64,000 nucleotides of DNA from a virus (lineage: Duplodnaviria > Heunggongvirae > Uroviricota > Caudoviricetes): IMG/VR virus record IMGVR_UViG_2721755711_000002, one strand, 5' to 3'. The notes under the pieces were generated by a model. The model had not been told where the DNA came from. It did no database searches and was given only the letters and a program-made list of their open reading frames with translations. This document shows positions 7,802 through 59,161 of this stretch, piece after piece; position 1 is the stretch's first letter, and each line of letters begins with the position of its first letter. A program made the position numbers and the translations under genes.

Positions 7802-8311
7802 ATGAGTAATGACAAAAAATTGACACTGAGCGTTTACGAAAACAGTCCGCACATCTGGCGTGGCGGTTTATCTGATATGGAGCTGGCAGAGTGGTTGATA
7901 CATAAAGCTAATGCGCTGCTCTGGCGTTTGTCAGCCAGAGAACAGCGCAAGGAAACCAGAATAAAGCTGGCTGATGCAGAAGCGTGTGCCGGGCTTATTG
8001 AGGATTATACAAATCTTGGTATTTCTTCAGCAGAGAGTGATCCCATTCAGCCTCTGAGCAGGGAGTCAATCCAGCACGCTGGTTGTATGGCACATCTTGT
8101 AACTGCTCGTCAACATGAGGTGGGTATTGGATCACTTCCGGTGGGATATTCGCTGATTCCAGAGCTGGTTGAAGCAAGAAAATCAGTTCAGAAAAAGAGA
8201 GATGACGCACTTCAATTATTGAGAGAGCACTATGGCGCGATACCAGAATGCGAACAGCGTCGATACCCTGAAGGTTATGAATGGATGCAGTCTCTTTTTG
8301 AAGTTCGCTAA
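7802..8311 (+). CDS. Hypothetical early protein
   Basis: 169-aa ORF from MSNDKK; a similar-length antisense ORF exists, so strand is uncertain. Confidence 0.35.
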   Translation: MSNDKKLTLSVYENSPHIWRGGLSDMELAEWLIHKANALLWRLSAREQRKETRIKLADAEACAGLIEDYTNLGISSAESDPIQPLSRESIQHAGCMAHLVTARQHEVGIGSLPVGYSLIPELVEARKSVQKKRDDALQLLREHYGAIPECEQRRYPEGYEWMQSLFEVR

Positions 8312-8528
8312 TCAATATGTCGAGACGAAGGTATGTTTCGGCGCGCAGCCAGGCTCTGTAATCCGGGAGCATTTCGGGGCTGTTACACCAGCGGTTTGTT
8401 GCTGCAACATTTAATACATGAGCCTGATAAAGGCTTTTCAAAAAATACATGTCGAACCTCCTCTGGTTCTGTCGATTGGGCACCACAGATTATATCCGGA
8501 GGAAGGTTCGGCACCAGATGAGGTAGCC

Positions 8529-9638
8529 ATGCGTGATTACGCAAAAGTTTCTCCGCGATTCTGGCTGGGAGAAACGGGGAGAGAACTTAGAAAGGCGGGT
8601 GCAGAAGCGCAAGTTGTTGCTTTTTACCTGATGACATCCCCTCACGCAAATATGCTGGGTTTGTATTACCTGCCAGTTTTATACCTTGCTCATGAAACCG
8701 GGCTTGGTCTGGAAGGGGCTTCAAAGGGGCTTAAAAGGGCTGTTGAAGCTGGTTTTTGTAGCTATGACCATGATGCCGAGATGGTCTGGGTCCATGAAAT
8801 GGCAGCCTGGCAGGTTGGGGAAACGTTGAAGCCTGGCGATAACCGTTGTGCAGGTGTCAGGAATGAGTATGCATCATTACCTGAAAACGCTTTTCTGTCA
8901 GCGTTTTATGACAGATATAAAACGGATTTCCATCTGGATGTGAGGCGGAATAATAGCCGAAATTCGGTAAGGGGCTTCGAAGGGGCTTTTAAGGGGCTTC
9001 GAAGCCAAGAACAGGAGCAGGAGAAAGAACAGGAACAGGACAAAAACACTATGGCTCATGGTGAAAAAAACACCACGAACCAGGCAGGGGATGTTCAGAC
9101 CGTAAATTCTGGTCAGCCAGCAGGCACGACACCGGAAGCCGATTCGGCGTATGCGCTGAAAGCCGATTCGGGCGCTGTGCAGCAGGTGATGACCGCAGGG
9201 TCGGAGCAATCACACCAACTGCAGCAGCCTGAAGCCGATTCCGCCATTCAGCGGGAAGCCGATCGGGTAGTCCCGGAAAACACCGGGCGGCCTGTGGGAC
9301 GAGTGGATTATCCGGATGTGTTCGAACAGGTCTGGCGGGAATACCCGTTGCGTGCCGGGGCAAACCCGAAGAAATCCGCATTCAGTGCCTGGAAGGCCAG
9401 ATTGCGCGAGGGGGTGCCACCAGAGACCATGCTGGATGGTGTGAGGCGTTACGCGAGATACCTGGCGGCGACCGGGAAAGCGGGAACGGAATTTGTTCAG
9501 CGAGCGACGACGTTTTTTGGACCGGACCGGAATTTTGAAAACCCCTGGTTGCTCCCGGTAAGCGGCACGAACAACCAGCGTTGTGTGAATCACATTTCTG
9601 AACCGGACACCGAAATTCCACCAGGGTTCAGGGGATAA
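8529..9638 (+). CDS. Phage replication protein (replisome organizer, O-like) with conserved phage C-terminal domain
   Basis: 369-aa ORF from MRDYAKVSPRFW with GAGG site; both termini resemble prophage replication initiators. Confidence 0.55.
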   Translation: MRDYAKVSPRFWLGETGRELRKAGAEAQVVAFYLMTSPHANMLGLYYLPVLYLAHETGLGLEGASKGLKRAVEAGFCSYDHDAEMVWVHEMAAWQVGETLKPGDNRCAGVRNEYASLPENAFLSAFYDRYKTDFHLDVRRNNSRNSVRGFEGAFKGLRSQEQEQEKEQEQDKNTMAHGEKNTTNQAGDVQTVNSGQPAGTTPEADSAYALKADSGAVQQVMTAGSEQSHQLQQPEADSAIQREADRVVPENTGRPVGRVDYPDVFEQVWREYPLRAGANPKKSAFSAWKARLREGVPPETMLDGVRRYARYLAATGKAGTEFVQRATTFFGPDRNFENPWLLPVSGTNNQRCVNHISEPDTEIPPGFRG

Positions 9639-18379: not shown

Positions 18380-19921
18380 ATGCCAACAGTTCCAATTTCT
18401 ATGAGAAAACTTAAAGAAATTCTTAGGCTTAAATACGGTGTTGGACTCAGCCATCGACAAATTGGTCGTAGTCTTGCAATCTCCCCTTCCGTTGTATCCA
18501 GATATGCTAATCGGGCGGCTCAACTTGGCATAAAGCAGTGGCCCTTACCTACAGGATGGGATGATACAAAACTAAAACATGCGTTCCTTCAGACCCAGGT
18601 TAAGATGAAGAAGCACTCTCTGCCTGACTGGGCTACAGTACACCGGGAACTGCGTAATAAATGCGTGACGCTGCAGCTACTCTGGGAAGAATACTGTGAG
18701 CGTAATCCAGGCGGTTTTTACAGCTATAACCATTACTGCCGGATGTACCGTGAATGGCTCAAAACCACTTCACCATCAATGCGTCAGGTACATAAAGCTG
18801 GCGAAAAACTTTTCGTTGATTACTGTGGACCTACCGTTGGCGTTACCGACCCTGAGACCGGAGAAATAAGAACTGCTCAGGTCATCGTAGCTGTTCTCGG
18901 GGCATCAAGTTACACATGGGCAGAGGCCACCTGGTCTCAGCAGCTTGAAGACTGGGTGATGAGTCATGTTCGCTGCTTCCAGTGGTTGGGTGGCGTTCCT
19001 GAACTTGTTGTTCCGGACAATCTGAAAAGCGCCACATCCAGGGCATGTAAGTATGATCCTGACGTTAACCCTACCTACCAGCAGATGCTTGAGCATTATA
19101 ATGTCGCAGTTTTGCCTGCGCGGCCACGTAAACCGAAAGATAAAGCCAAAGCTGAAGTTGGCGTTCAGGTTGTTGAACGCTGGATCATGGCCCGAATCAG
19201 GCATGAGATCTTCTACAGCCTTGCATCGCTTAATCAGCGCATTCGGGAGTTGCTGGAAAGACTGAATAACAAAATAATGCAGAAGTTGGGTTATTCACGT
19301 GCAGAACTCTTCATCCAGCTTGATAAACCCGCACTGAAGCCTCTTCCTGAAGCCAGTTACAGTTACACCCTGGTGAAGAAAGTCAGAGTTCATGCCGATT
19401 ACCACGTGGAAATCGACAAACATTACTACTCGGTTCCATGTTCGCTGTTAGGCCAGCAACTGGAAGCATGGATCTCCGGAGAACTGGTAAGACTCTTCAA
19501 TCAGGGGCAGGAGGTTGCTGTGCACCCGCGCAAGCGTACTTATGGCTACAGTACCCGCAACGAGCACATGCCTGAAGCTCATCGACAGCATGCCACCTGG
19601 ACGCCAGAGCGTCTTCTGGAATGGGCGGGGCACATAGGCAGTGAAACTCATAGTTATGTGCTTCATATACTGAACTCTCGTCCACATCCGGAACAAAGCT
19701 ATCGCTTCTGCCTTGGACTCCTGAACCTTCATAAAAAATACAGTAAAGCCAGACTTAATGCAGCATGTGCAAGAGCTCTGAAAACAAAGGTATGGCGTCT
19801 GTCAGGTATTAAATCGATCCTGGAAAAAGGTCTGGATAAACAACCTGTTCAGGATCCAAAACCAGATCTGTTATCCACGATGGAACACGAAAACGTACGC
19901 GGCAGTGAGTATTACCACTGA
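18380..19921 (+). CDS. istA: IS21-family transposase IstA
   Basis: 513-aa ORF with N-terminal HTH and DDE integrase-like core. Confidence 0.85.
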   Translation: MPTVPISMRKLKEILRLKYGVGLSHRQIGRSLAISPSVVSRYANRAAQLGIKQWPLPTGWDDTKLKHAFLQTQVKMKKHSLPDWATVHRELRNKCVTLQLLWEEYCERNPGGFYSYNHYCRMYREWLKTTSPSMRQVHKAGEKLFVDYCGPTVGVTDPETGEIRTAQVIVAVLGASSYTWAEATWSQQLEDWVMSHVRCFQWLGGVPELVVPDNLKSATSRACKYDPDVNPTYQQMLEHYNVAVLPARPRKPKDKAKAEVGVQVVERWIMARIRHEIFYSLASLNQRIRELLERLNNKIMQKLGYSRAELFIQLDKPALKPLPEASYSYTLVKKVRVHADYHVEIDKHYYSVPCSLLGQQLEAWISGELVRLFNQGQEVAVHPRKRTYGYSTRNEHMPEAHRQHATWTPERLLEWAGHIGSETHSYVLHILNSRPHPEQSYRFCLGLLNLHKKYSKARLNAACARALKTKVWRLSGIKSILEKGLDKQPVQDPKPDLLSTMEHENVRGSEYYH

Positions 19922-19932
19922 TACGGGATCCA

Positions 19933-20682
19933 ATGATGAATCATCTTTACGAACAACTGACCGCACTTAAACTCACCGGCTTCCGTGATGCGCTTAAAAA
20001 GCAACTTGCTCAGCCGGGCACATACCAGGAGCTGGGCTTCGAAGAACGCCTGTCATTACTGACAGCAGAAGAACTAACCTGCCGTGAAAACAGGAAGGCA
20101 GAGCGTCTGATCAAACATGCACGGTTCAGACTTAATGCTGAGTTATCAAAGCTGGATTATCGTAACAATAGAGGGCTGGACAGGGCCCTCATCCGTTCAC
20201 TCAGTCAGGGAAACTGGTTAACCCTGAAACAAAATATTTTACTGACCGGGGCCACCGGCAGCGGTAAAACGTTCCTGGCATGTGCACTTGGTCATAATGC
20301 CTGCCGACAGGGATACAAGGTCTACTATTATCGCCTTAAAGCGCTGATGGAACAGTGCTATCAGGGGCATGCTGATGGAAGATACAGCAAACTTTTGACC
20401 AGGCTGAATAATAGCGATCTGCTGCTTCTGGATGACTGGGGGCTGGAACCTCTCTCATCAGAACAGCGTAGCGACCTGCTGGAAATAGTGGATCTGATGT
20501 ACCAACGAGGCTCAATCATCGTAGTGAGCCAGTTGCCGGTGGAAAACTGGTACAAAATGATCGGAGACTCCACACATGCGGATGCCATCCTAGATCGACT
20601 GGTTCATGGCAGTATCAAGATCGAACTTAAAGGAGAATCAATGCGGAAAATACAATCTCCGTTGACCGAAGGAGATCAGTGA
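19933..20682 (+). CDS. istB: IS21-family helper ATPase IstB
   Basis: 249-aa ORF with Walker A LTGATGSGKT and Walker B LLLLDDWG. Confidence 0.9.
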   Translation: MMNHLYEQLTALKLTGFRDALKKQLAQPGTYQELGFEERLSLLTAEELTCRENRKAERLIKHARFRLNAELSKLDYRNNRGLDRALIRSLSQGNWLTLKQNILLTGATGSGKTFLACALGHNACRQGYKVYYYRLKALMEQCYQGHADGRYSKLLTRLNNSDLLLLDDWGLEPLSSEQRSDLLEIVDLMYQRGSIIVVSQLPVENWYKMIGDSTHADAILDRLVHGSIKIELKGESMRKIQSPLTEGDQ

Positions 20683-20836
20683 AGGTAATTTAAAAACGGT
20701 TCTGTGAAAGTGACACGAACCGATCTCCATCGATGTTACTCACCGATCTCCTTCACGGTAATACGCACATAATAAAAAAATCCAGAATAAAGCGCAAAAT
20801 AAGGTGATACAGCACTTTATTTGACCACTTACGTTT

Positions 20837-35030: not shown

Positions 35031-35922
35031 TCAGGCTGCCAGATCATCGTTTCCGATGGAAGCATAATAAGCTTTTTCTGCTTCTGCCGGTGGGATATGG
35101 CCCAGCCTTTCCAGCAATCGTCGATTGTTATACCAGTCCACCCACGTGAGTGTGGACAGCTCCACTTCTGTCCGGTTTTTCCAGCGCTTACGGTGTATTA
35201 CCTCCGCTTTGTAAAGGCCATTGATGCTTCTCCGCCATCGCGTTGTCATACGAGTCACCAGTACTCCCTGTTGATGCCAGTAAGCCGGCTTCCTTAAGCC
35301 GCTGCGTGTAGGCCAGCGATACATACTGAGAACCTTTATCACTGTGGTGGATTGTGCCGGACGGCCGACGGGCCCACAACGCCTGCTCCAGTGCATCCAG
35401 CACGAATGCCGTTTCCATGGATGATGAGACCCGCCATCCCACGATGTATCCGGCGAACACATCAATGATGAACGCCACATAAACGAAGCCCTGCCATGTG
35501 TTTACCCAGGTAAAATCAGCCACCCACAACTGGTCAGGACGTTCTGCCACGAACTGACGGTTTACGCGGTCGCATGCGGCAACGGCTTTCCGGCTGACGG
35601 TAGTGCGGACCTTTTTACCCCGGAGAACACCGGCAAGTCCCATAACCGCCATGAGACGTGCCACAGTGCATCTGGCCACTCTGATACCTTCCCGTAACAA
35701 CTGACGCCAGACTTTACGCACACCGTATACCTGGTGATTTTCATCGTATACGCGCTGTATCTCTTTCTTCAGCCAGTCATCGCGCTGCGCACGGGCACTG
35801 CGTTTATCAGGATGATGTCGCTGTTGCTGACAGTGGTAATACGTTGACGGGGCAATATGCAGTTCGCTGCATACCGGTCCGACCCCGTACTGCTCACGCA
35901 GCTTATCCAGCAGTGGCATCAT
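35031..35922 (-). pseudogene. IS629 transposase orfB interrupted by a 1-nt insertion frameshift
   Basis: ORF pieces 35188-35922 and 35031-35480 are in different frames; extra base in GAGAAGC (plus-strand ~35227-35231) breaks the expected DNAMAESINGLYKAEV. Confidence 0.7.
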
Positions 35923-36245
35923 TTTTTCCAGAGGCGGTCGAACTCCGCCTTCGCAAAATAAGCGGAAGCCTGGCGAAGGATATCGTTACTGCGGCGCAGT
36001 TCACGATTTTCACGTTCCAGCTCTTTCAGACGCTGACGTTCAGCGGTGGTGAGCCCACCATCACCGCCCCCGGTATCCCGCTCATGCTGGCGAACCCAGA
36101 CACGCAGAGTCTCCGGCGTACAGCCAATTTTTGGGGCAATGGAACAAATTGCCGCCCACTGTGAATCATACTCATCCTGACTTTCCAGAACCATACGAAT
36201 CGCTCGCTGACGGACTTCGGGGGAAAAACGAGTATTTTTAGTCAT
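35919..36245 (-). CDS. IS629 transposase OrfA (HTH)
   Basis: 108-aa [24 protein letters not shown]... with leucine-zipper-like C-terminus. Confidence 0.85.
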
Positions 36246-46344: not shown

Positions 46345-46886
46345 ACCGCTACGCGCTCCTTCAGCCAGCCATAAACAAACGATTCGTTAGCCTCGCGTTT
46401 CTCTGCCAGTTCCAGATAGCGGTCACCCTGCGTGCAGTTCAGGGCTGTCAGCATCACCCGTTCGCCGTCCTGACCGCGATTATTCAGGAAGGCGCGCAAT
46501 GCGCTGATGGTACGAGGTCCGATGCGTCCGTCTGCGTCCATATCCGGGTACAGCCTGCCGCGCAGGTTGAAAACGTTCAGCCAGCGTTGGAGCATTTTTG
46601 ACGCCACGGATGGCCCCATATTCACACCGGTATCACACAGCTCTGCGGCAATATCAGGGGATAATGCCGCAACCTGATCAAATCGCGGGCCATACCAGTA
46701 ATCGGCTTCAAGGATGTCCAGCGCCTGTTCGCGGGTTAACTCACGCATATCGCCACGGTATCCGTGGGCACGGGCGACTTTTTCCGTAATGCCCCATTTG
46801 GTCGGGCCGCCCTTATCATCCGGGTGATTGACGTAACCGCCTTCTTTGCCCAGGACTTCATCAAAAATTTCATCTTTTGATTTCAT
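46341..46886 (-). CDS. Endolysin (glycoside hydrolase family 108-like muramidase with peptidoglycan-binding domain)
   Basis: 181-aa ORF with N-terminal EGGYVNHPDDKGGPTKWGIT motif. Confidence 0.75.
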   Translation of the reverse strand: MKSKDEIFDEVLGKEGGYVNHPDDKGGPTKWGITEKVARAHGYRGDMRELTREQALDILEADYWYGPRFDQVAALSPDIAAELCDTGVNMGPSVASKMLQRWLNVFNLRGRLYPDMDADGRIGPRTISALRAFLNNRGQDGERVMLTALNCTQGDRYLELAEKREANESFVYGWLKERVAV

Positions 46887-47172
46887 GTGGATGCCTCAGT
46901 AACGAAAGGATTTTTGACAAATTCCCGTGCGCCCACACGATAAGCGCACAGAAAACCAGATTCAGCGCCACAACCAGCCAGCTGGAGTGCGTGTATGTAC
47001 CGGACAGCCAGCGGAACGGGATGATGATGTAGCCGAGCATCAGCCAGTACGCCAGCCAGGTAATCATCGGTTTATGCGCCGCACCGTGGCGGCGATACAC
47101 AAACAACCCCAGCACAATGGCGAGGCACAGCCAGACGTTCACGATACCGGCAAGGCTACTTTCCATTTCCAC
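46870..47172 (-). CDS. Lysis-associated multi-pass membrane protein (holin/antiholin candidate)
   Basis: 100-aa ORF with hydrophobic helices between holin-like gene and endolysin. Confidence 0.45.
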   Translation of the reverse strand: MEMESSLAGIVNVWLCLAIVLGLFVYRRHGAAHKPMITWLAYWLMLGYIIIPFRWLSGTYTHSSWLVVALNLVFCALIVWAHGNLSKILSLLRHPHEIKR

Positions 47173-47548
47173 CCCCTCCGCCGCGCAGTCTGGAAAACAG
47201 GCCGAACAGCGATGAAATTTCCTGTTGATAAAGAAAAGTCAGTATCTTGATGGATAAAGCAGAGACACCGACCGCACACAATGCATCGAGCGGTTTGTCG
47301 TTATAGTGGGTCAGCCACTGCATCAGTGACGCAGCCACGCCAGCCCCCAGAACGCCAACCACAAACGCGACGAGCAGGTGAATAGCCATTCGCCATACCG
47401 GGATTTCTTTCTGCTGAGTGACAACAAAAAGCGCCCCGGCAAACGCGCCCACCACGACCCCGAAATCGGTATTGGTGAGAAGGCCAAACACACTGGCACC
47501 ACCGATGGTGACTGCCACAGCTCCGCCGCCTGATAAGGGTTCAGACAT
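47156..47548 (-). CDS. Holin-like membrane protein
   Basis: 131-aa ORF, Gly/Ala-rich helices; homologue of the truncated gene at 17956; upstream region also similar. Confidence 0.5.
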   Translation of the reverse strand: MSEPLSGGGAVAVTIGGASVFGLLTNTDFGVVVGAFAGALFVVTQQKEIPVWRMAIHLLVAFVVGVLGAGVAASLMQWLTHYNDKPLDALCAVGVSALSIKILTFLYQQEISSLFGLFSRLRGGGGGNGK

Positions 47549-47730
47549 GAGTTTCTCCTGTAAATCTGAGCCACTGACGGCCCGTAAATAACACCCTGTC
47601 AAAGGCACAAAAGCCTTTTGCAGGGCGCTATCCCTTAAGGTGCCTTGTGGTCTGAGTGGACAGGGTAAACGGTCTGGTGTGGTGGGTACTGCTGGGGGAG
47701 TTCAGCACCCCGCGGCGGCGGGGTGATAAA

Positions 47731-48503: not shown

Positions 48504-48598
48504 GATGGCGTCTCCGGTAGTAACTTACTGTTATTATAGCCATACATGATCGCCTGTACAGACCACAAAAAAGCCCCTGCAAGGCAGAGGCTGATTCT

Positions 48599-51545: not shown

Positions 51546-52097
51546 TTAACTACGACGTTCAGTTTTCCGGTAATGGCGGTCAACAGATTTAACGAACGCC
51601 TTCACATCACGGGAAATCGAATCCAGCGGATAATATTTATCCAGCAGTTCCATTCCGCTGAATCGAATCTGAAAAAAATCAGGCTTATCTTTATATGACT
51701 CCATCAGGTCAATAAACCGCAGCTGACGCGGGAGGGATTCCTGCACGCCTGAAATAGTGAGCAAATCATCTTCAAGGATATATGCGAGGTCTTCCATATC
51801 CTTACAGTCAGACATCATGGATATTCTTGTCAGTATGTTCCGTGTGGCGATATACAGCGCGGCTGTGTCATTCGCCATCATGGCGAACAAATCCCCCTGA
51901 ATATAAGCCCCCTTACTGGCCATAGCATTCCCGGCAATCTGCGCATCAAGTACCACATACATAAAATCGCCAGGTGCACCCAGATGGCCCAGCAATGATG
52001 ACGCCCATAACGTTACATTGGTTAACTTCCCAGATGAACGGACAGCAAAACCTTCAGGAGTAACAATAAATTCCCAGACTTTATCTTTCATATACAA
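51546..52097 (-). CDS. Hypothetical protein
   Basis: 183-aa ORF bracketed by the two hairpin elements. Confidence 0.5.
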   Translation of the reverse strand: MYMKDKVWEFIVTPEGFAVRSSGKLTNVTLWASSLLGHLGAPGDFMYVVLDAQIAGNAMASKGAYIQGDLFAMMANDTAALYIATRNILTRISMMSDCKDMEDLAYILEDDLLTISGVQESLPRQLRFIDLMESYKDKPDFFQIRFSGMELLDKYYPLDSISRDVKAFVKSVDRHYRKTERRS

Positions 52098-52155
52098 ATC
52101 CCCTTAATTCAGGCGCAGACCTGTTTACCTGCGCCATAAAAAAACGAAGTCAGAG

Positions 52156-52548
52156 TTAAAAATCGAAGACGTCAGTTAATTCCCGCTTCAGTGAAACGCA
52201 CTCAGAATAAAAGCCCTCGCTCTCACCGCACCATCTGACGACTACACAGCCTTTTGATGTGCCGAACTTAAAGAAACTCCATGTCTGATGACCTTCCCCA
52301 ACATCACATTCTTCGGTAACCACTTCAGCCTCTGTCAGCGGTTCATCTTTCAGGTCGTCAAGGTCTCCGACGATGTCCTCAATCCAGACTTTTTCGCAGC
52401 CTTCCTGAAAGTGGAAAAATGTAAACACGGTTCCCCATACTCCCCGGGAATAATCACCACGAAAAACAAGTTCATCGTTTTCATTCTTAACTACTTCTTT
52501 AAATGTACGCCCGAGCATTTCATTGATAACGGTAACACTCATTTTCAT
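52156..52548 (-). CDS. Hypothetical acidic protein
   Basis: 130-aa ORF; GGAG site directly after hairpin element B. Confidence 0.5.
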   Translation of the reverse strand: MKMSVTVINEMLGRTFKEVVKNENDELVFRGDYSRGVWGTVFTFFHFQEGCEKVWIEDIVGDLDDLKDEPLTEAEVVTEECDVGEGHQTWSFFKFGTSKGCVVVRWCGESEGFYSECVSLKRELTDVFDF

Positions 52549-52550
52549 TT

Positions 52551-52612
52551 CTCCAGATTCAGGCGTAAGTCAGCCCCGGCTGGTTTACGCCTGTTTTAAA
52601 TAACAATTAAAA
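52551..52612 (-). repeat. Intergenic hairpin element, copy B
   Basis: GATTCAGGCGTAAGTCAGCCCCGGCTGGTTTACGCC plus ATTAAAAACA, matching copy A. Confidence 0.6.
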
Positions 52613-52622
52613 ACAAATTAAA

Positions 52623-52814
52623 TTAATGCGGTGCTTTCAGTGTTTCGACTTTTACGAAATAAGGCTCGACATTAATTTCAACCACACAACCACATTTAAA
52701 ATCTCTGGCAGGTGAAACGGTTTTCACCACACGACCACCACGCAACGCCGGATGTGCAGTGTGCATGAAGCGAGTCCCTACCGGATACTGCTTATTAAAG
52801 TTCTTCGCATTCAT
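52623..52814 (-). CDS. Small hypothetical protein
   Basis: 63-aa ORF. Confidence 0.35.
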   Translation of the reverse strand: MNAKNFNKQYPVGTRFMHTAHPALRGGRVVKTVSPARDFKCGCVVEINVEPYFVKVETLKAPH

Positions 52815-53028
52815 GGCGTGGCCTCCAGCCCTTCAGGTGAGCGTTAGCGCAGAACTCCGCACGATGTTCAGCCCAGATGCGGCGCAGGGTGCTACACGGG
52901 CTTTGTGCTGCCTTACGCCACAGCTTTTCAGCCTCGGCATAATCACCGCGCTGTTCAGCTCTTGACGCTCCCAGTGAATACGCCGCGCAACGGTTCCCGG
53001 CTCTGTACTCTTTGATATCCTGATGCAT
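52795..53028 (-). CDS. Small helical protein, possibly ANR-like (AraC negative regulator family)
   Basis: ~77-aa ORF; AEQRGDYAEAEKLWRKAAQSPCSTLRRIWAEHRAEFC recalls ANR-family patterns from memory only. Confidence 0.3.
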   Translation of the reverse strand: MHQDIKEYRAGNRCAAYSLGASRAEQRGDYAEAEKLWRKAAQSPCSTLRRIWAEHRAEFCANAHLKGWRPRHECEEL

Positions 53029-53029
53029 G

Positions 53030-53674
53030 TTAAACCCCTGCAATATCAAGCGGGATTGCGCGATATTCGTCAGAATCGCCGACGCGCTCATACACACGAA
53101 TATAGCTCTTGCTGCCAATCACCTGGACGGCTTCACCAATCAGCGTCATTGCGTTATTCCAGCGTTCGTCCTCAATTTCAAGGCGACGCAAGGCCAGAAC
53201 GCGCCCGGTGTTAATGTTGCCTTCCTTGTCCGTGCTGAATGCCTCGCTGATGATGGCTTTGATTTCAGGGCGTGCACCTTCCGTCCAGTCAGCCAGGCAA
53301 TCATCAATCAGCGACTTCGCGGTCTGAATGCGTTCATCAAACGCGATACGGTCCTGCATGGCGCGCTGAATCTTGTAACGCCCGTCAAAGCTGTAAAGCG
53401 TGATATTGCCTTTTTTGCCACCTTTCACTGCGCCGTATTTCTCCGCCGACAGGTCAATAAACGCCTGAATATCACCAAAGGCACGTAGTTTCAGTTCACG
53501 CAGTGAGGCGGAGGCAGCAATCACCAGTTCCACAATCTCACCGACCAGCTGCTCGCGGTCGCGGTCAATATCTTTGATAAGGCTTTCAGGTGTCATTACG
53601 CCACGGGCATCCACCCAGTAACCTTCAGGCGCTTGAGTTTTCGTGTATTGCTTAACTTTATTTTCAGTCGTCAT
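53030..53674 (-). CDS. Hypothetical early protein (DUF3164-like)
   Basis: 214-aa ORF in Mu-like early region. Confidence 0.45.
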   Translation of the reverse strand: MTTENKVKQYTKTQAPEGYWVDARGVMTPESLIKDIDRDREQLVGEIVELVIAASASLRELKLRAFGDIQAFIDLSAEKYGAVKGGKKGNITLYSFDGRYKIQRAMQDRIAFDERIQTAKSLIDDCLADWTEGARPEIKAIISEAFSTDKEGNINTGRVLALRRLEIEDERWNNAMTLIGEAVQVIGSKSYIRVYERVGDSDEYRAIPLDIAGV

Positions 53675-53703: not shown

Positions 53704-53919
53704 TTAATTTGTGTTATGTGCGCGAGGCGCAACGTTTTCAGAAAAAATATTCACGCCGTTGTAGTCATTTCTCAGTGCTTCCTTGATAACATCATGTAAT
53801 CCTGTTGCCACCTGAAGCTCCCTTTTGGAAGCGCCATCCTTCGAATAACTCCCTGTAATCCGGGTAAAAGTCGCGCCTTTTTCATTGGTATAGATAATTA
53901 CTTCTAATTTAACCGCCAT
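53704..53919 (-). CDS. Hypothetical early protein
   Basis: 71-aa ORF. Confidence 0.4.
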   Translation of the reverse strand: MAVKLEVIIYTNEKGATFTRITGSYSKDGASKRELQVATGLHDVIKEALRNDYNGVNIFSENVAPRAHNTN

Positions 53920-53931
53920 TCTGATTTCCTC

Positions 53932-54171
53932 TCATTGCCATACGACGGTGCAGCCGTCGATACAGGATGTTTTCACCACGCGGCGCAGGCCGCTGAATGT
54001 CTGGATGATTTCCGTTACCGGCCATACAGGACCACCCACAGGCGGGCAGGCATAAACCACAGGTAAACGGTGATGTTGCCCCGTTACACGACCGCCGGTG
54101 GTGTGGATGGCCACACGGGCACGGGAACGGACGGCATTAATGGTCTGCTTTTCCATCATTTTGTTCTCCAT
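53932..54171 (-). CDS. Hypothetical early protein
   Basis: 79-aa ORF just downstream of B. Confidence 0.4.
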   Translation of the reverse strand: MENKMMEKQTINAVRSRARVAIHTTGGRVTGQHHRLPVVYACPPVGGPVWPVTEIIQTFSGLRRVVKTSCIDGCTVVWQ

Positions 54172-55064
54172 CAGTGAATTAACATTTCTGAATATTTATC
54201 AATGGCCTGCACACTGACCGGTGCATCGCTGATATCACAAATCCGGTACACACCACGCGCCAGCTTGAACAGACGACGGGCATTACCCAGCGAACGTGTG
54301 TAAAGTGCCTCACCAATTTCCGGGTCCGCCGCTTCCGGCATCATGTCTGTGGCAATCTTGTTAAAATCTTCCTGCGTCAGCGTATCGCCCAGGTTAAGCG
54401 CCAGCGCCACGCGGCTGTATAATTGAGCGAACTCACCACAACGGCCCTTAAGGTTAATCAGAAGGTGAGGCATACCCGCCAGGACAATCCCGATACCCGC
54501 TTTGTCATGCAGACGGCGCAATACCTCCAGTGCACGATAGGGGAGCAGTTCAGCCTCATCCACCATCAGCAGACGACCTGACCCACGCAGTTCACGCACA
54601 CAGGCATCAATCTTCTCGCGAATATCGCCGTGAACCTTTATGCCCAACTGGCGGCACAGTTCATCGAGTAACTTTCTGGCCGTATAGCCAATATCGGCTT
54701 CAATGAGCACTACATCCCGGTTTCTGGCGGCATATTCACTCAGAATCATGCTTTTACCCAGGCCCGCCGCGCCATACAGAACGCAAATATCACACTCCAG
54801 ATGGGCGTAGGTCAGTACTTCCAGCCCTTTGGCAGCCATGCCGGTGGTGACAAATCGCACTTTAATACGGCGGTTGTTTTCCTTTTCCCATTCACGGGTC
54901 ACAAAGGCAGAAATGCGTTCTTCAATATCAGCCATATCGCCCTGATATTTGCCCTGCAAATACTGGTTGATAACAGCGCTGCTACGACCAATAGCACGGG
55001 CAACGTGGGTCTGCGTAAAGCCGCGACGGGCCATTACGTCATTTAATTGCGTAATTAAACTCAT
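54171..55064 (-). CDS. B: DNA transposition protein B (AAA+ ATPase, Mu B-like)
   Basis: 297-aa ORF with N-terminal HTH and Walker A GAAGLGKS; follows transposase A. Confidence 0.85.
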   Translation of the reverse strand: MSLITQLNDVMARRGFTQTHVARAIGRSSAVINQYLQGKYQGDMADIEERISAFVTREWEKENNRRIKVRFVTTGMAAKGLEVLTYAHLECDICVLYGAAGLGKSMILSEYAARNRDVVLIEADIGYTARKLLDELCRQLGIKVHGDIREKIDACVRELRGSGRLLMVDEAELLPYRALEVLRRLHDKAGIGIVLAGMPHLLINLKGRCGEFAQLYSRVALALNLGDTLTQEDFNKIATDMMPEAADPEIGEALYTRSLGNARRLFKLARGVYRICDISDAPVSVQAIDKYSEMLIH

Positions 55065-55082: not shown

Positions 55083-57125
55083 TTAACGATTATTTGTGCC
55101 GTTTTTCTTTAAATTGCGCTCACGGTCAGACACGAATAAATAAAGTTCTTCTTTTTCCTTTTTCTCCTGGCGTTCCAGTCCATATCCCAGATTAAACTCA
55201 GGTTTCTGCGTAATAGCCGGGGTAAGTTCGCGTTTAGCCTCTTCGATTTTCTGCGTGGCCCGTGCAATGCGGCCTCGGGCGCGTTTCTCCTGCTGCTGTT
55301 CGATAACGGCTTTCGGGAACGCATCGACCTTGTTACCGTTCCAGATGGCATCGCAGATATAAGAACCGTCCATTCGCCTGACAATCACGCTGTTTGCGTC
55401 GTGAATGTCGTAACAAACCCTGACTTCATTTCCGTGCTCTGCTGCCAGTTCTGTGGAGAAATAGATGTTTCTGAATAACACCACTTCACCGCGTCGCACC
55501 GTGCAGATGCTTTCCGGTCGGAACATTTCATGCAGTTCTTCCGGCGACAGCATGTCGATTTCAGCCTTTTGCTCTTTTATCAGTTTCCGGCGATACGCTG
55601 CCGGGCTGTAATGTTCGCCATCCTCTTTGCGGGGAAGGCTGCTGTGTGGTCGGTTGTTATACCGTTTCACCTCCAGCTCTATTGCGGCCAGCAGTTGCTC
55701 AAAGGTGGGGACTTCTCCCATCGCTTTAACCTGCCGTTTTGTCAGCTCTTTCCCTTTGTGGGTGGCCTTAATGGCTGACTGTGTGATGCGTTGCTGCATC
55801 ATCACCGTTTCCTTGTCTGCATTTTTTGAGCAGTACGTCTGGAAACTCAGGGCCACATCTTTGGGTATTCCTTTGTTTGCCCGTTCTATTACCCCGCGCC
55901 CCTGCGGGTTACCAGGTATCCCCGTGTGATGCTCCACACCCAGTCGGGGCAGAATCCCGGTAATATCGGCATCAAGCACCCGGTTTTTTTCACCGCCCCC
56001 GTTATCGGAGTAATAAATCAGCGGTATTCCGTGTTGTGACATGCCATGACGCAATGCATCAGCAACGGCTATCACGTTCTCCGACAGGGACAGCGACCAG
56101 CCCACAATAAAGCGTTGCCCCGCATCCATAACCAGCGTCACTTCTGGCCGGAATGTATTCCCGGTGGCGGGGCTGAATGCCATCAGTTTCATACAGTGAC
56201 CATCCCCGACCCATACCGCATTAACCGGTAATGTGCTCCAGTCGCGCCGCACAAAGGGATTGAGCGAACGCCAGGCTGAACCGGTGGAGCGGAAACGCTC
56301 CTTCACAATCACCGGGACGTTGCTTAACACCCGTCTTACTGCGTGAACTGAAGGCAGTGCTGCCAGCATTCCTGCGTCATTCGCGTGCTTTTCATGCCAC
56401 CAGGCTGAAAACTCGCGATACGCATATTCAACGGTCGGGCGCTTCCATGAGCGATAGAACATAAAGAAATCGCTCAACCACCAGACCTGCTCCCACGGTG
56501 TTCCCTTATGATGACCGGGAGCCAGTAACGCCAGTAACTGATTGGCATCACCGCGCGCCATCAACCAGGCGGAATACCATTCCTGCAAACTTCCCCAACT
56601 GACGCCAGTTCGCTTACCCTGTCTGGCGTTTGCAGTGCCTGCGGCCTCAATAATGCGGTCAGGTAACGCCCCCATGCGCACACCATCAATGATGTGTTTT
56701 ACTGCTGCCGTCCTGGACATTCCTGCGTATTCACGCAGTTTATGCACTTCGGTAGCCAGCAATATCCGCGCATCAGCGATGGCCTTTTGCTTGTCGGTCA
56801 GTGCCTGAACTTCGCGTAATGCCAGTTCCGGGCATTTGACCATCACTTCCAGTTCATCGCGAACGGTGACGTTTTTAACTGCCTTCTGCTCAACCACGGC
56901 GGGCAGTTGCGCATCTTCCAGAACCTGATGAGTCAGGCGCTTACGTAAAACTTTCTGCGCTTCAGTGGGCAGGCAGTCGATGTGATACTCGAATGCTTTG
57001 GTGCCTTCACGCTTGCGCTTCCATTCCGGGTGCGTCTCTGTGATCCGATTGAGCGTCCAGCGCACCCCCTGAACTGTACCGGGCAAACCAGGAAGACCGG
57101 CCAGCTCATTGGCTGAATAAAACAT
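55083..57125 (-). CDS. A: Mu-type DDE transposase A
   Basis: 680-aa ORF; N-terminus ANELAGLPGLPGT resembles MuA; ner-A-B order. Confidence 0.9.
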   Translation of the reverse strand: MFYSANELAGLPGLPGTVQGVRWTLNRITETHPEWKRKREGTKAFEYHIDCLPTEAQKVLRKRLTHQVLEDAQLPAVVEQKAVKNVTVRDELEVMVKCPELALREVQALTDKQKAIADARILLATEVHKLREYAGMSRTAAVKHIIDGVRMGALPDRIIEAAGTANARQGKRTGVSWGSLQEWYSAWLMARGDANQLLALLAPGHHKGTPWEQVWWLSDFFMFYRSWKRPTVEYAYREFSAWWHEKHANDAGMLAALPSVHAVRRVLSNVPVIVKERFRSTGSAWRSLNPFVRRDWSTLPVNAVWVGDGHCMKLMAFSPATGNTFRPEVTLVMDAGQRFIVGWSLSLSENVIAVADALRHGMSQHGIPLIYYSDNGGGEKNRVLDADITGILPRLGVEHHTGIPGNPQGRGVIERANKGIPKDVALSFQTYCSKNADKETVMMQQRITQSAIKATHKGKELTKRQVKAMGEVPTFEQLLAAIELEVKRYNNRPHSSLPRKEDGEHYSPAAYRRKLIKEQKAEIDMLSPEELHEMFRPESICTVRRGEVVLFRNIYFSTELAAEHGNEVRVCYDIHDANSVIVRRMDGSYICDAIWNGNKVDAFPKAVIEQQQEKRARGRIARATQKIEEAKRELTPAITQKPEFNLGYGLERQEKKEKEELYLFVSDRERNLKKNGTNNR

Positions 57126-57361
57126 TACGCCGCCTTACTGGCATACCGGCTTGGCCAGATCTCCGCAGGTTCCACACCAATAGCATCGGCTATGATGCGT
57201 TCATATTTAGGGCATGAGCGATACAGTGCATTTTTTAAAGAGTCTTTTTTTAGACCAGCGCGTTCAGAAAGTTCACGCAATGTAAAACCTTTGGTGTGCA
57301 CAGCGGCAACGATGTACTCGCGGTGCCAGTCTTTGTTCATTACTTCATTTCTAACCATCAT
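57125..57361 (-). CDS. ner: Ner-like DNA-binding regulator
   Basis: ~79-aa ORF with DWHREY and IWPSRY motifs shared with Mu Ner/Nlp. Confidence 0.8.
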   Translation of the reverse strand: MMVRNEVMNKDWHREYIVAAVHTKGFTLRELSERAGLKKDSLKNALYRSCPKYERIIADAIGVEPAEIWPSRYASKAA

Positions 57362-57543
57362 TAGGTTACCCTTAAAAGTTATCCGTGCGGATAACACCGC
57401 CGTGTTATCCCTTCGGATATAAGTATTGATCCATATGTAACCCATGTAAAGCAAAAATAGCCTTTTCTTTGTATTTTCTTTTTGCTTTTGGTCTTTATAT
57501 GGTTTTGTGATTGAAAATCAATTGGTTAAATAGGAAAGGAAAA
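57362..57543. promoter_or_regulatory. Divergent c/ner operator-promoter region
   Basis: AT-rich intergenic region with repeated CTTTT motifs between divergent ner and c genes. Confidence 0.4.
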
Positions 57544-58191
57544 ATGACAAAAAATGATGACGCTTTTTCTTTAGTTGACCGAGGAAAAGAAAGTTTTAGA
57601 GAGCGTTTAGTAAAACTAATAGGTGGGCGCAGTGTCAGAACTGCCGCGAGCGACTGGGGTATCCCTCCTTCAACCTTAAACAACTACATCCATAAAGGAA
57701 CAGAACCCTCTTTTAAAATAGCCTGCCTTATCTCAGATAAAGAGCGGGTGAGTTTAAATTGGCTCGCTTATGGTGAGGAACTCACCGCCACAGCAAACTC
57801 TTTATCAAACCAAACAGCGCAGCCTTCTCCCGATATTACAAACGAGCTAGCTAACGAGTTATTGAAAAGAGCGTCCACAGAAGATAAAGAACTATTGATA
57901 AATGCAATATGTGATATGGGTATCAAAGGAATCCTAAAACGTCTGCAACAACCCACTAGGCAAGCGAAACAAGCCGCTAACACGCTGGAGGAGCAAGAGA
58001 ATGCTATCCAAAGTCTGAATATCAGGAAATCACTTAAGGATGCAATCCGAGTAGCATTACATGGAAACGAAGATACTGACAGAGAGATTTTGCGAATTGT
58101 TGAATCTCATATACGACCACAATCGCCGGGTGATCAGACCGATGTCACACCGGAGCAAGAAACAAAATCTGTAAGTAAAAAATCAGCATGA
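57544..58191 (+). CDS. c: Mu-type repressor c
   Basis: 216-aa ORF divergent from ner with AGGAAAGGA site; N-terminal DNA-binding-like region. Confidence 0.7.
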   Translation: MTKNDDAFSLVDRGKESFRERLVKLIGGRSVRTAASDWGIPPSTLNNYIHKGTEPSFKIACLISDKERVSLNWLAYGEELTATANSLSNQTAQPSPDITNELANELLKRASTEDKELLINAICDMGIKGILKRLQQPTRQAKQAANTLEEQENAIQSLNIRKSLKDAIRVALHGNEDTDREILRIVESHIRPQSPGDQTDVTPEQETKSVSKKSA

Positions 58192-58465: not shown

Positions 58466-58496
58466 CACTCAGTCCAGAATTGATCACTACCCCACA
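58466..58496. other. Candidate Mu-like prophage left terminus (approximate)
   Basis: Repeated ATCCAGAAT-like motifs at 58341-58360, 58388-58409, 58466-58486; possible end ...TGATCA at 58486; expected distance from c gene. Confidence 0.2.
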
Positions 58497-59026: not shown

Positions 59027-59161
59027 ATGTCAGATAGCATTATAAAACTGGCGCGAATTCTCTGTGTGGTTGTTGGCCTTTCATTTTCAGCAATGTTGGT
59101 TGCCATTTTCATTTCCACCGCCTGGCGAGTATTGAGCTTATCCGGATTGATTGGTGGATAG
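59027..59161 (+). CDS. Small hydrophobic peptide (44 aa)
   Basis: Short ORF MSDSIIKLARILCVVVGLSF... directly upstream of lipoprotein gene. Confidence 0.25.
   Translation: MSDSIIKLARILCVVVGLSFSAMLVAIFISTAWRVLSLSGLIGG

Follow-up and report, generated by a model that had tools for sequence, protein, structure and literature searches.

Which kind of protein is encoded by the short open reading frame (ORF) at positions 52795-53028 of the IMG/VR virus record IMGVR_UViG_2721755711_000002, and is it tied to a regulator of the AraC family encoded elsewhere on the same DNA? We examined this question in the stretch of 64,000 nucleotides that carries the ORF, referred to here as the window. [quoted passage not shown] Searches with hidden Markov models (HMMs) show that the protein matches the NCBIfam model NF033650 (ANR_neg_reg) with 56.9 bits (E 1.3e-15) over positions 2-52 of the 54 in the model. 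The cut-off of this model is 32, so that the search put forward by the earlier note as a check, with the lack of an ANR match as the outcome that would count against the family, returned a significant match. In the same test, the Rnr protein of enteropathogenic Escherichia coli (EPEC) E2348/69 scored 56.9 bits, Aar 65.5 bits and SuMu gp09 66.4 bits. Likewise, the protein falls in phrog_2227 of PHROGs (function unknown), with an E value of 1.1e-27. Together with a full set of signature residues, fitting size and helices and 95% identity to Rnr, the model match bears out the family assignment.

ANR proteins were defined by Santiago et al. 2016 (PMC4983702) as proteins of less than 10 kDa with three predicted helices and a seven-residue signature followed by an aromatic-Cys pair. 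The seven highly conserved residues of the family, A10, E14, A22, W26, A29, W43 and R47 (PMC4983702), are all present in the window protein as A21, E25, A33, W37, A40, W52 and R56, with F59-C60 after them. These positions form invariant columns in an alignment of the window protein with Aar, E2348/69 Rnr, SuMu gp09 and Yersinia homologues. The LWRKAA...WAEHRAEFC segment quoted earlier, LWRKAAQSPCSTLRRIWAEHRAEFC, corresponds to residues 36-60 of the 77-residue protein, and its WRKAA...EHRAEFC part to residues 37-60. Relative to the ANR consensus, the helix 2-3 loop lacks two residues. The computed mass of 8,973 Da lies within the range of the family and within that of clade-2 ANRs, 8.5-9.05 kDa (PMC10148876). 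Given a shallow alignment of seven sequences, AlphaFold2 models a three-helix fold in which the helices, at residues 3-27, 30-42 and 47-66, are followed by a short turn of low confidence at the C-terminus; pLDDT averages 79.5 and reaches 85-94 in the core blocks. The ~77-residue helical protein described by the earlier note is thus found as an ATG-started ORF of 77 residues with a three-helix model. An AraC/XylS regulator is also encoded in the window, at 17032-17778; this is a weak criterion for an ANR, AraC proteins being ubiquitous in Enterobacteriaceae.

Rodriguez-Valverde et al. 2023 (PMC10148876) give, in a methods table, the primers with which rnr of EPEC E2348/69 was cloned and deleted. 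The published sense primer, ATGCATCAGGATATCAAAGAGTACAGGGCTGGGAACCG, translates to MHQDIKEYRAGN, and the lambda-red homology arm for rnr corresponds to a DUF3164 gene's 3' end. The corresponding locus in NC_011601.1 is E2348C_RS14140 (WP_000553850.1), named 'ANR family transcriptional regulator'. The window protein and E2348/69 Rnr, both 77 residues long, are identical at 73 of 77 positions (95%) in a gap-free alignment. The gene order in E2348/69, namely HTH (helix-turn-helix) repressor, Ner-like, Mu transposase, AAA ATPase, DUF3164, ANR, 63-residue ORF, DUF2786, gp16/GemA and Mor, also matches that of the window, and the two ANR genes occupy the same slot right after DUF3164, overlap the same downstream ORF and give the same HMM score. 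What differs is the site of the prophage: in the window it lies within a lambdoid prophage, while the E2348/69 copy occupies the eut operon and the Citrobacter rodentium one the Flag-2 cluster. The Rnr clade is described as sharing 93.5% identity at 100% coverage (PMC10148876). Its C. rodentium orthologue ROD_02851, also 234 nt, was described as part of a phage region with flagellar genes on either side (PMC4038620). This region is CRP28, one of three Mu-like C. rodentium prophages with random insertion and with nearly complete transcription during ordinary growth (PMC3072379). On the grounds of the 73/77 identity and the shared gene order, the window gene is a further allele of Rnr (RegA-negative regulator), ANR clade 2. 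All 57 E. coli genomes with an rnr-type gene label its product 'ANR family transcriptional regulator'. The gene is therefore already known, already named in RefSeq and found in its usual Mu-like prophage setting.

The gene model itself is well supported. The ORF starts with an ATG at 53028 and ends at 52795 (stop codon counted) on the minus strand, encoding MHQDIKEYRAGNRCAAYSLGASRAEQRGDYAEAEKLWRKAAQSPCSTLRRIWAEHRAEFCANAHLKGWRPRHECEEL. Its ATG lies one base past the stop codon of the DUF3164 gene (TAA-C-ATG), with a Shine-Dalgarno-like GGGG run on its 5' side, and its last 20 nt are shared with the start of the 63-residue orf63. The TAA-C-ATG junction suggests translational coupling of the DUF3164 and ANR genes. 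An alternative TTG-started version of 107 residues (52795-53118) is probably an over-extension, because it runs into the 3' end of the DUF3164 gene and because RefSeq and the published Rnr constructs use the 77-residue ATG form; its counterparts are found in some databases as over-extended calls of 94-98 residues. The gene was compared across 21 orthologous loci, of which 18 are prophage contigs from IMG/VR, two come from E. coli genomes and one is the window's own; among them are 19 distinct DNA sequences. Synonymous divergence of the ANR gene is 0.28 per site, whereas non-synonymous divergence is 0.033 overall and 0.009 in the core codons 14-64. The resulting ratio of non-synonymous to synonymous divergence (dN/dS) is 0.096 for the whole gene and 0.027 for the core, indicating that the ORF is under strong purifying selection and is a real gene, more than a chance reading frame. 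The ends are less constrained, both the first 13 codons and the last 13, the latter overlapping orf63. An Rfam scan found no RNA element at the ANR locus.

The neighbourhood (Table 1) confirms the Mu-like early region described by the earlier note, with Ner-like, MuA, MuB, Kil, GemA and Mor genes as neighbours and a divergent CI-type repressor. The genes run in the order Ner-like, MuA, MuB, Kil, orf71, DUF3164, ANR, orf63, DUF7448, orf183, DUF2786/DUF7168 and GemA. In related loci the Ner-like slot is occupied by PF13693 HTH_35. The MuA-type transposase and MuB-type ATPase of the window are 39-41% and 37-42% identical, respectively, to the transposases and B proteins of a Mannheimia phage and SuMu. 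Transcription of the ANR gene would start at the early promoter near 57422-57450. By analogy with Mu, the early transcript, ANR gene included, probably ends at the hairpin at 48592-48572, past which lie a strong promoter-like site and then Mor. The setting of the gene, judged from sequence alone, holds no sign of AraC-dependent control.

Table 1. Features of the window discussed in the text, with their coordinates
Feature	Coordinates	Strand	Remarks
Left terminus of Mu-like prophage	58474..58496	minus	TGTGGGGTAGTGATCAATTCTGG...; single match in the window
Divergent CI-type repressor	57511..58191	plus	PF07022 Phage_CI_repr; same position as the repressor in related prophages
Candidate Pe-like early promoter	57422..57450	minus	TTTACA, 17-nt spacer, AATACT; upstream of ner; consensus scan, putative function
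Ner-like HTH gene, first of the early operon	57125..57361	minus	read from sequence; orthologue annotated HTH protein
MuA-type transposase (680 aa)	55083..57125	minus	orthologues annotated 'Mu transposase C-terminal domain-containing protein'
MuB-type AAA ATPase (transposition protein B)	54171..55064	minus	orthologues annotated 'AAA family ATPase'
Kil-like early gene	53932..54171	minus	phrog_2679 'Kil protein for bacterial septation inhibition', E 1.7e-38
DUF3164 gene	53030..53674	minus	PF11363, E 2.5e-81; directly upstream of the ANR gene
rnr-type ANR gene	52795..53028	minus	77 aa, 8.97 kDa, pI 8.8; ORF under study
orf63 (phrog_5591, function unknown)	52623..52814	minus	start overlaps last 20 nt of the ANR gene
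Terminator-like hairpin and T-run	48572..48592	minus	between GemA and Mor; consensus scan, putative function by analogy with Mu
YdeO/GadX-like AraC-family gene	17032..17778	plus	HTH_18 and HTH_AraC; between Q antiterminator and holin of the lambdoid prophage

Around the ANR gene, the cassettes at 51546-52548 and 53704-53919, on either side of the DUF3164-ANR-orf63 trio, differ between prophages that are near-identical elsewhere. Some of these prophages have DUF7448 and orf183 and others do not, and the identity of orf71 lies between 39% and 93%. The variable flanks therefore point to mosaic exchange around a constant DUF3164-ANR-orf63 core. The gap between orf63 and DUF7448 holds a hairpin with a 15-bp stem (52560-52593), which is terminator-like on the plus strand only, antisense to the early operon, and lacks a T-tail on the strand of the operon. 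This hairpin might represent a mosaic joint or an RNA-stability element.

How would such a protein act? Aar binds the central linker of AggR, disrupting AggR dimerisation and preventing DNA binding (PMC4983702). Its known partners are AggR, Rns, CfaD, GadW and GadX, the last two by two-hybrid assay, and Aar lowers HdeB expression (PMC4983702). ANRs of several species cross-complement each other and bind several AraC/XylS members promiscuously (PMC4983702). H-NS is another binding partner of Aar, which alters the silencing mediated by H-NS (PMC5570504). Deletion of ROD_02851 in C. rodentium raises expression of regA and its regulon and increases colonisation of mice (PMC4038620). [quoted passage not shown]

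These studies, together with the findings above, lead us to regard it as very likely that the ORF is an Rnr orthologue, a ~9-kDa three-helix ANR protein working by protein-protein contact and encoded in the early operon of a Mu-like prophage. The protein itself would not bind DNA and would act through its contacts. It is expected to bind the linker/dimerisation region of AraC/XylS activators (AggR, Rns/CfaD, RegA, ToxT, GadX/W), thereby blocking their dimerisation and DNA binding, and may also bind proteins of the H-NS family (H-NS, Ler), changing silencing. The literature on Rnr, which is 95% identical, and on Aar suggests that the same H-NS, Ler and AraC-type interactions occur in the host of this prophage. 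Most likely the protein would be made whenever the Mu-like early operon fires or leaks. In CRP28, which bears ROD_02851, 55 of 58 coding sequences are transcribed in ordinary culture (PMC3072379); an early-operon gene can therefore act in a lysogen.

Several observations weigh against this explanation. A search of Pfam, which holds no ANR model, returned for the window protein TPR matches only, all of them sub-threshold. Searches of PDB sequences and with Foldseek found no solved ANR structure, only non-significant MIT/TPR-like three-helix bundles. The four substitutions relative to E2348/69 Rnr (R69K, R71P, C74R, E76T) all fall in the last nine residues, where the gene overlaps orf63. A consensus scan for a promoter of the ANR gene's own found one weak site inside DUF3164, and promoter-like sites were fewer than in shuffled sequence. 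Expression of the gene in a repressed prophage is assumed from the C. rodentium precedent. While family membership, orthology to Rnr, purifying selection and operon position are established directly for the window gene, its binding and expression are extrapolated from Rnr, Aar and C. rodentium.

Aar of enteroaggregative E. coli 042, like Cnr of enterotoxigenic E. coli, belongs to ANR clade 1, matches the same family model and carries the same signature residues as the window protein. Its published mode of action is that of Rnr, for which it can be functionally exchanged (PMC10148876). Aar is ~31% identical to the window protein in our alignment (~25% in the literature) and is shorter, with a helix 2-3 loop two residues longer. 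The two genes differ in their setting: aar is plasmid-borne, lies beside an AraC regulon and is transcriptionally activated by its AraC partner, whereas the window gene is a gene of a phage early operon.

This setting raises the possibility that the selected role of the ANR protein serves the phage. The molecule and its binding chemistry would be those of the Rnr-like regulator described above, while its purpose would differ: it would counter silencing of the AT-rich early region by proteins of the H-NS family, or reprogramme the host in lytic transposition, and the effects on AraC-type virulence regulators would be collateral. We consider this reading possible, though doubtful. Such an anti-silencing role is reasonable because the early promoter of Mu is repressed by H-NS (van Ulsen 1996, cited in PMC8501957) and because other phages make small H-NS inhibitors. 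T7 gp5.5, T4 Arn and LUZ24 gp4/Mip are small early phage proteins that bind a protein of the H-NS family and alter silencing (PMC8501957). They resemble the ANRs by functional analogy only; they share no sequence kinship or demonstrated structural kinship with them, and binding of AraC/XylS proteins is a feature of the ANRs. Both Rnr (PMC10148876) and Aar (PMC5570504) bind H-NS.

The distribution of ANR genes bears on the same point. DUF3164 precedes the ANR gene in all of the 18 IMG/VR loci, which are near-identical prophages from a search with closer alignment, and in both E. coli genomes examined. The same arrangement, DUF3164 directly before the ANR gene and a 20-nt overlap of the latter with an ORF of 63-65 residues in the orf63 slot, is also kept in four diverged Mu-like contigs, namely a Yersinia prophage (L027), whose ANR is 64% identical to that of the window, and three metagenomic contigs (L030, L031, L032) with 31-38% ANR identity. 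The kept overlap suggests translational coupling of the ANR gene and orf63, and their products possibly form a complex. Across these four contigs orf63 is better conserved (52-74% identity) than the ANR protein (31-64%).

ANR-model matches are also found in the equivalent early slot of the Pasteurellaceae Mu-like phages SuMu and Mannheimia vB_MhM_3927AP2. The gp09 proteins of these two phages are ~32-40% identical to the window ANR, and their early-region genes lie downstream of those for transposase A/B and for Gam or DUF3164; SuMu has no DUF3164 beside its ANR gene. A non-Mu Vibrio myophage and a lambdoid-type prophage also have such matches in their early regions, the latter next to RecT. 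A tblastn search of a phage collection with the ANR protein gave no match at E<=1e-3; relaxed to E<=10 it gave weak matches, and an HMM test of some of these bore out SuMu gp09 as well as the ORFs from the Vibrio and Mannheimia phages. The Mannheimia gp09 (L003 5686-5880) is annotated as 48 residues owing to an in-frame stop, past which the conserved W..R..FC part carries on in the same frame; the stop could reflect a pseudogene, a sequencing error or read-through.

Other observations speak against a role selected for the phage. The first 11 kb of phage Mu hold no ANR homologue, and the protein is therefore not essential to the Mu lifestyle. Other members of the family are plasmid-borne, and those known as Aar and Cnr adjoin AraC regulons, not phage genes (PMC4038620). 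The reading draws on genomic context (~10 ANR contexts sampled) and on analogy. Only tentatively could the ANR family be seen as at root a family of phage early proteins, with DUF3164-ANR-orf63 as a conserved, translationally coupled module and the antivirulence effect of Rnr as a side effect of a leaky early operon.

Less support is found for the regulatory pair that the earlier note had proposed, in which the ANR protein would be the dedicated negative partner of the 17032-17778 AraC regulator in an inter-prophage circuit. Both genes lie within the window, the best NCBIfam similarities of the AraC protein are to YdeO and GadX (below equivalog cut-offs), and ANR binding is promiscuous across AraC/XylS members. 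The nearest characterised relatives of the AraC protein, GadX and GadW, are bound by Aar, which also lowers HdeB (PMC4983702); a contact between the ANR and AraC proteins is thus biochemically conceivable. However, genome comparisons show that the two genes seldom travel together. Among 5,426 complete E. coli genomes, an rnr-type gene is present in 57 and an AraC gene of the 17032-17778 type in 64. Comparing 60 listed of the 64 AraC carriers with all 57 rnr carriers, both genes were found in at least four genomes, the near-identical STEC306/307/308 (STEC, Shiga toxin-producing E. coli) and 08-00022, where they lie 1.2 to 2.5 Mb apart. E2348/69 and other rnr-bearing genomes are absent from the 60 listed carriers. 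Furthermore, the ANR gene is part of a phage early operon, unlike aar and cnr, which are divergent from or downstream of their AraC genes (PMC4038620). The closeness of the two genes in the window is explained by the Mu-like prophage sitting inside the lambdoid one. We conclude that the two genes are not a co-inherited or co-evolved unit, that any cross-talk is opportunistic, and that a dedicated circuit is improbable. The earlier note was right that the regulator is of the AraC family and belongs to a lambdoid prophage; "neighbouring" does not describe the arrangement, in which one element lies within the other. The AraC gene sits in a 'moron' position, its usual label is only 'helix-turn-helix domain-containing protein', and its carriers are mostly bovine, porcine or STEC isolates.

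Finally, the idea that the ORF is non-functional or mis-called, or encodes a generic single TPR-like helical hairpin without a regulatory role, is given almost no credence, since purifying selection on the gene is strong, the curated model NF033650 is matched above its cut-off, the protein is 95% identical to one with deletion and complementation phenotypes, and W52, R56, F59 and C60, which lie outside the TPR-like hairpin, are invariant. Its appeal comes from helices 1-2, which resemble one TPR hairpin in a protein that lies outside the TPR family. Sub-threshold Pfam TPR matches reach 14-16 bits against cut-offs of 23-27, and the fold search gives weak MIT/TPR-like three-helix matches (E > 0.1). 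Word-index searches with the short protein are shallow (12 and 22 matches). An exhaustive profile search returned 159 matches, about half of them long TPR proteins aligned over the helix 1-2 hairpin only, through positions 21-41. We rejected the reading as a spurious ORF in light of the NF033650 match, the identity to Rnr and the dN/dS. Likewise, membership of the TPR family was rejected, with TPR_14, TPR_2 and TPR_10 scoring 15.9, 14.9 and 14.2 bits against Pfam gathering thresholds of 23.5, 27 and 27.5.

The arrangement of the two prophages was traced by alignment. Identity to the E2348/69 and STEC308 prophage ends is lost exactly at the Mu-like left end at 58496, and lambdoid late genes (terminase, portal) resume just outside it. 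Alignment with an uninterrupted relative shows the lambdoid sequence breaking off at 18222, within the holin gene, and picking up again at 59161. The Mu-like prophage is ~37.7 kb long (~20770 to 58496), inverted in the window and inserted inside the lambdoid prophage rather than beside it. The truncated holin gene is separated from the right end of the Mu-like prophage by an IS21-family element (ISEc12-like istA/istB, ~18223-20770). About 1.3 kb of the lysis cassette is apparently lost from the lambdoid prophage, which is probably defective. When the right terminus was sought in the window by similarity to the left one, only the left end matched, and a STEC308 candidate for the right end fell in host fim genes. 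The lysis genes of the Mu-like prophage (46345-47608, minus strand) share ~72% DNA identity with the lysis cassette at 8000-9269 of a lambdoid relative (L034); this cassette, with holins and a GH108 endolysin, is the one missing from the interrupted lambdoid prophage. In the Mu-like tail-gene region, an Rfam ALIL pseudoknot (RF01497), a frameshift-stimulating element, was found at 35848-35964 on the minus strand with 121.5 bits against a gathering score of 50; in this region the ORFs at 35031-35480 and 35188-35922 overlap each other.

For the window itself the identification is of little consequence, adding a further copy of a characterised regulator that public pipelines name correctly. Its value lies in annotation: in a strain that carries this Mu-like prophage, the ANR protein probably acts in trans to damp AraC/XylS activators and also modulates H-NS. 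Such a protein could affect acid-resistance, adhesin or T3SS regulons, including any under the prophage-borne YdeO-like regulator. In the literature, ANRs are viewed as virulence regulators that accompany AraC activators. ANR genes as a module that diverged Mu-like phages conserve in their early operons would change the interpretation of the family if phage experiments confirmed the point.

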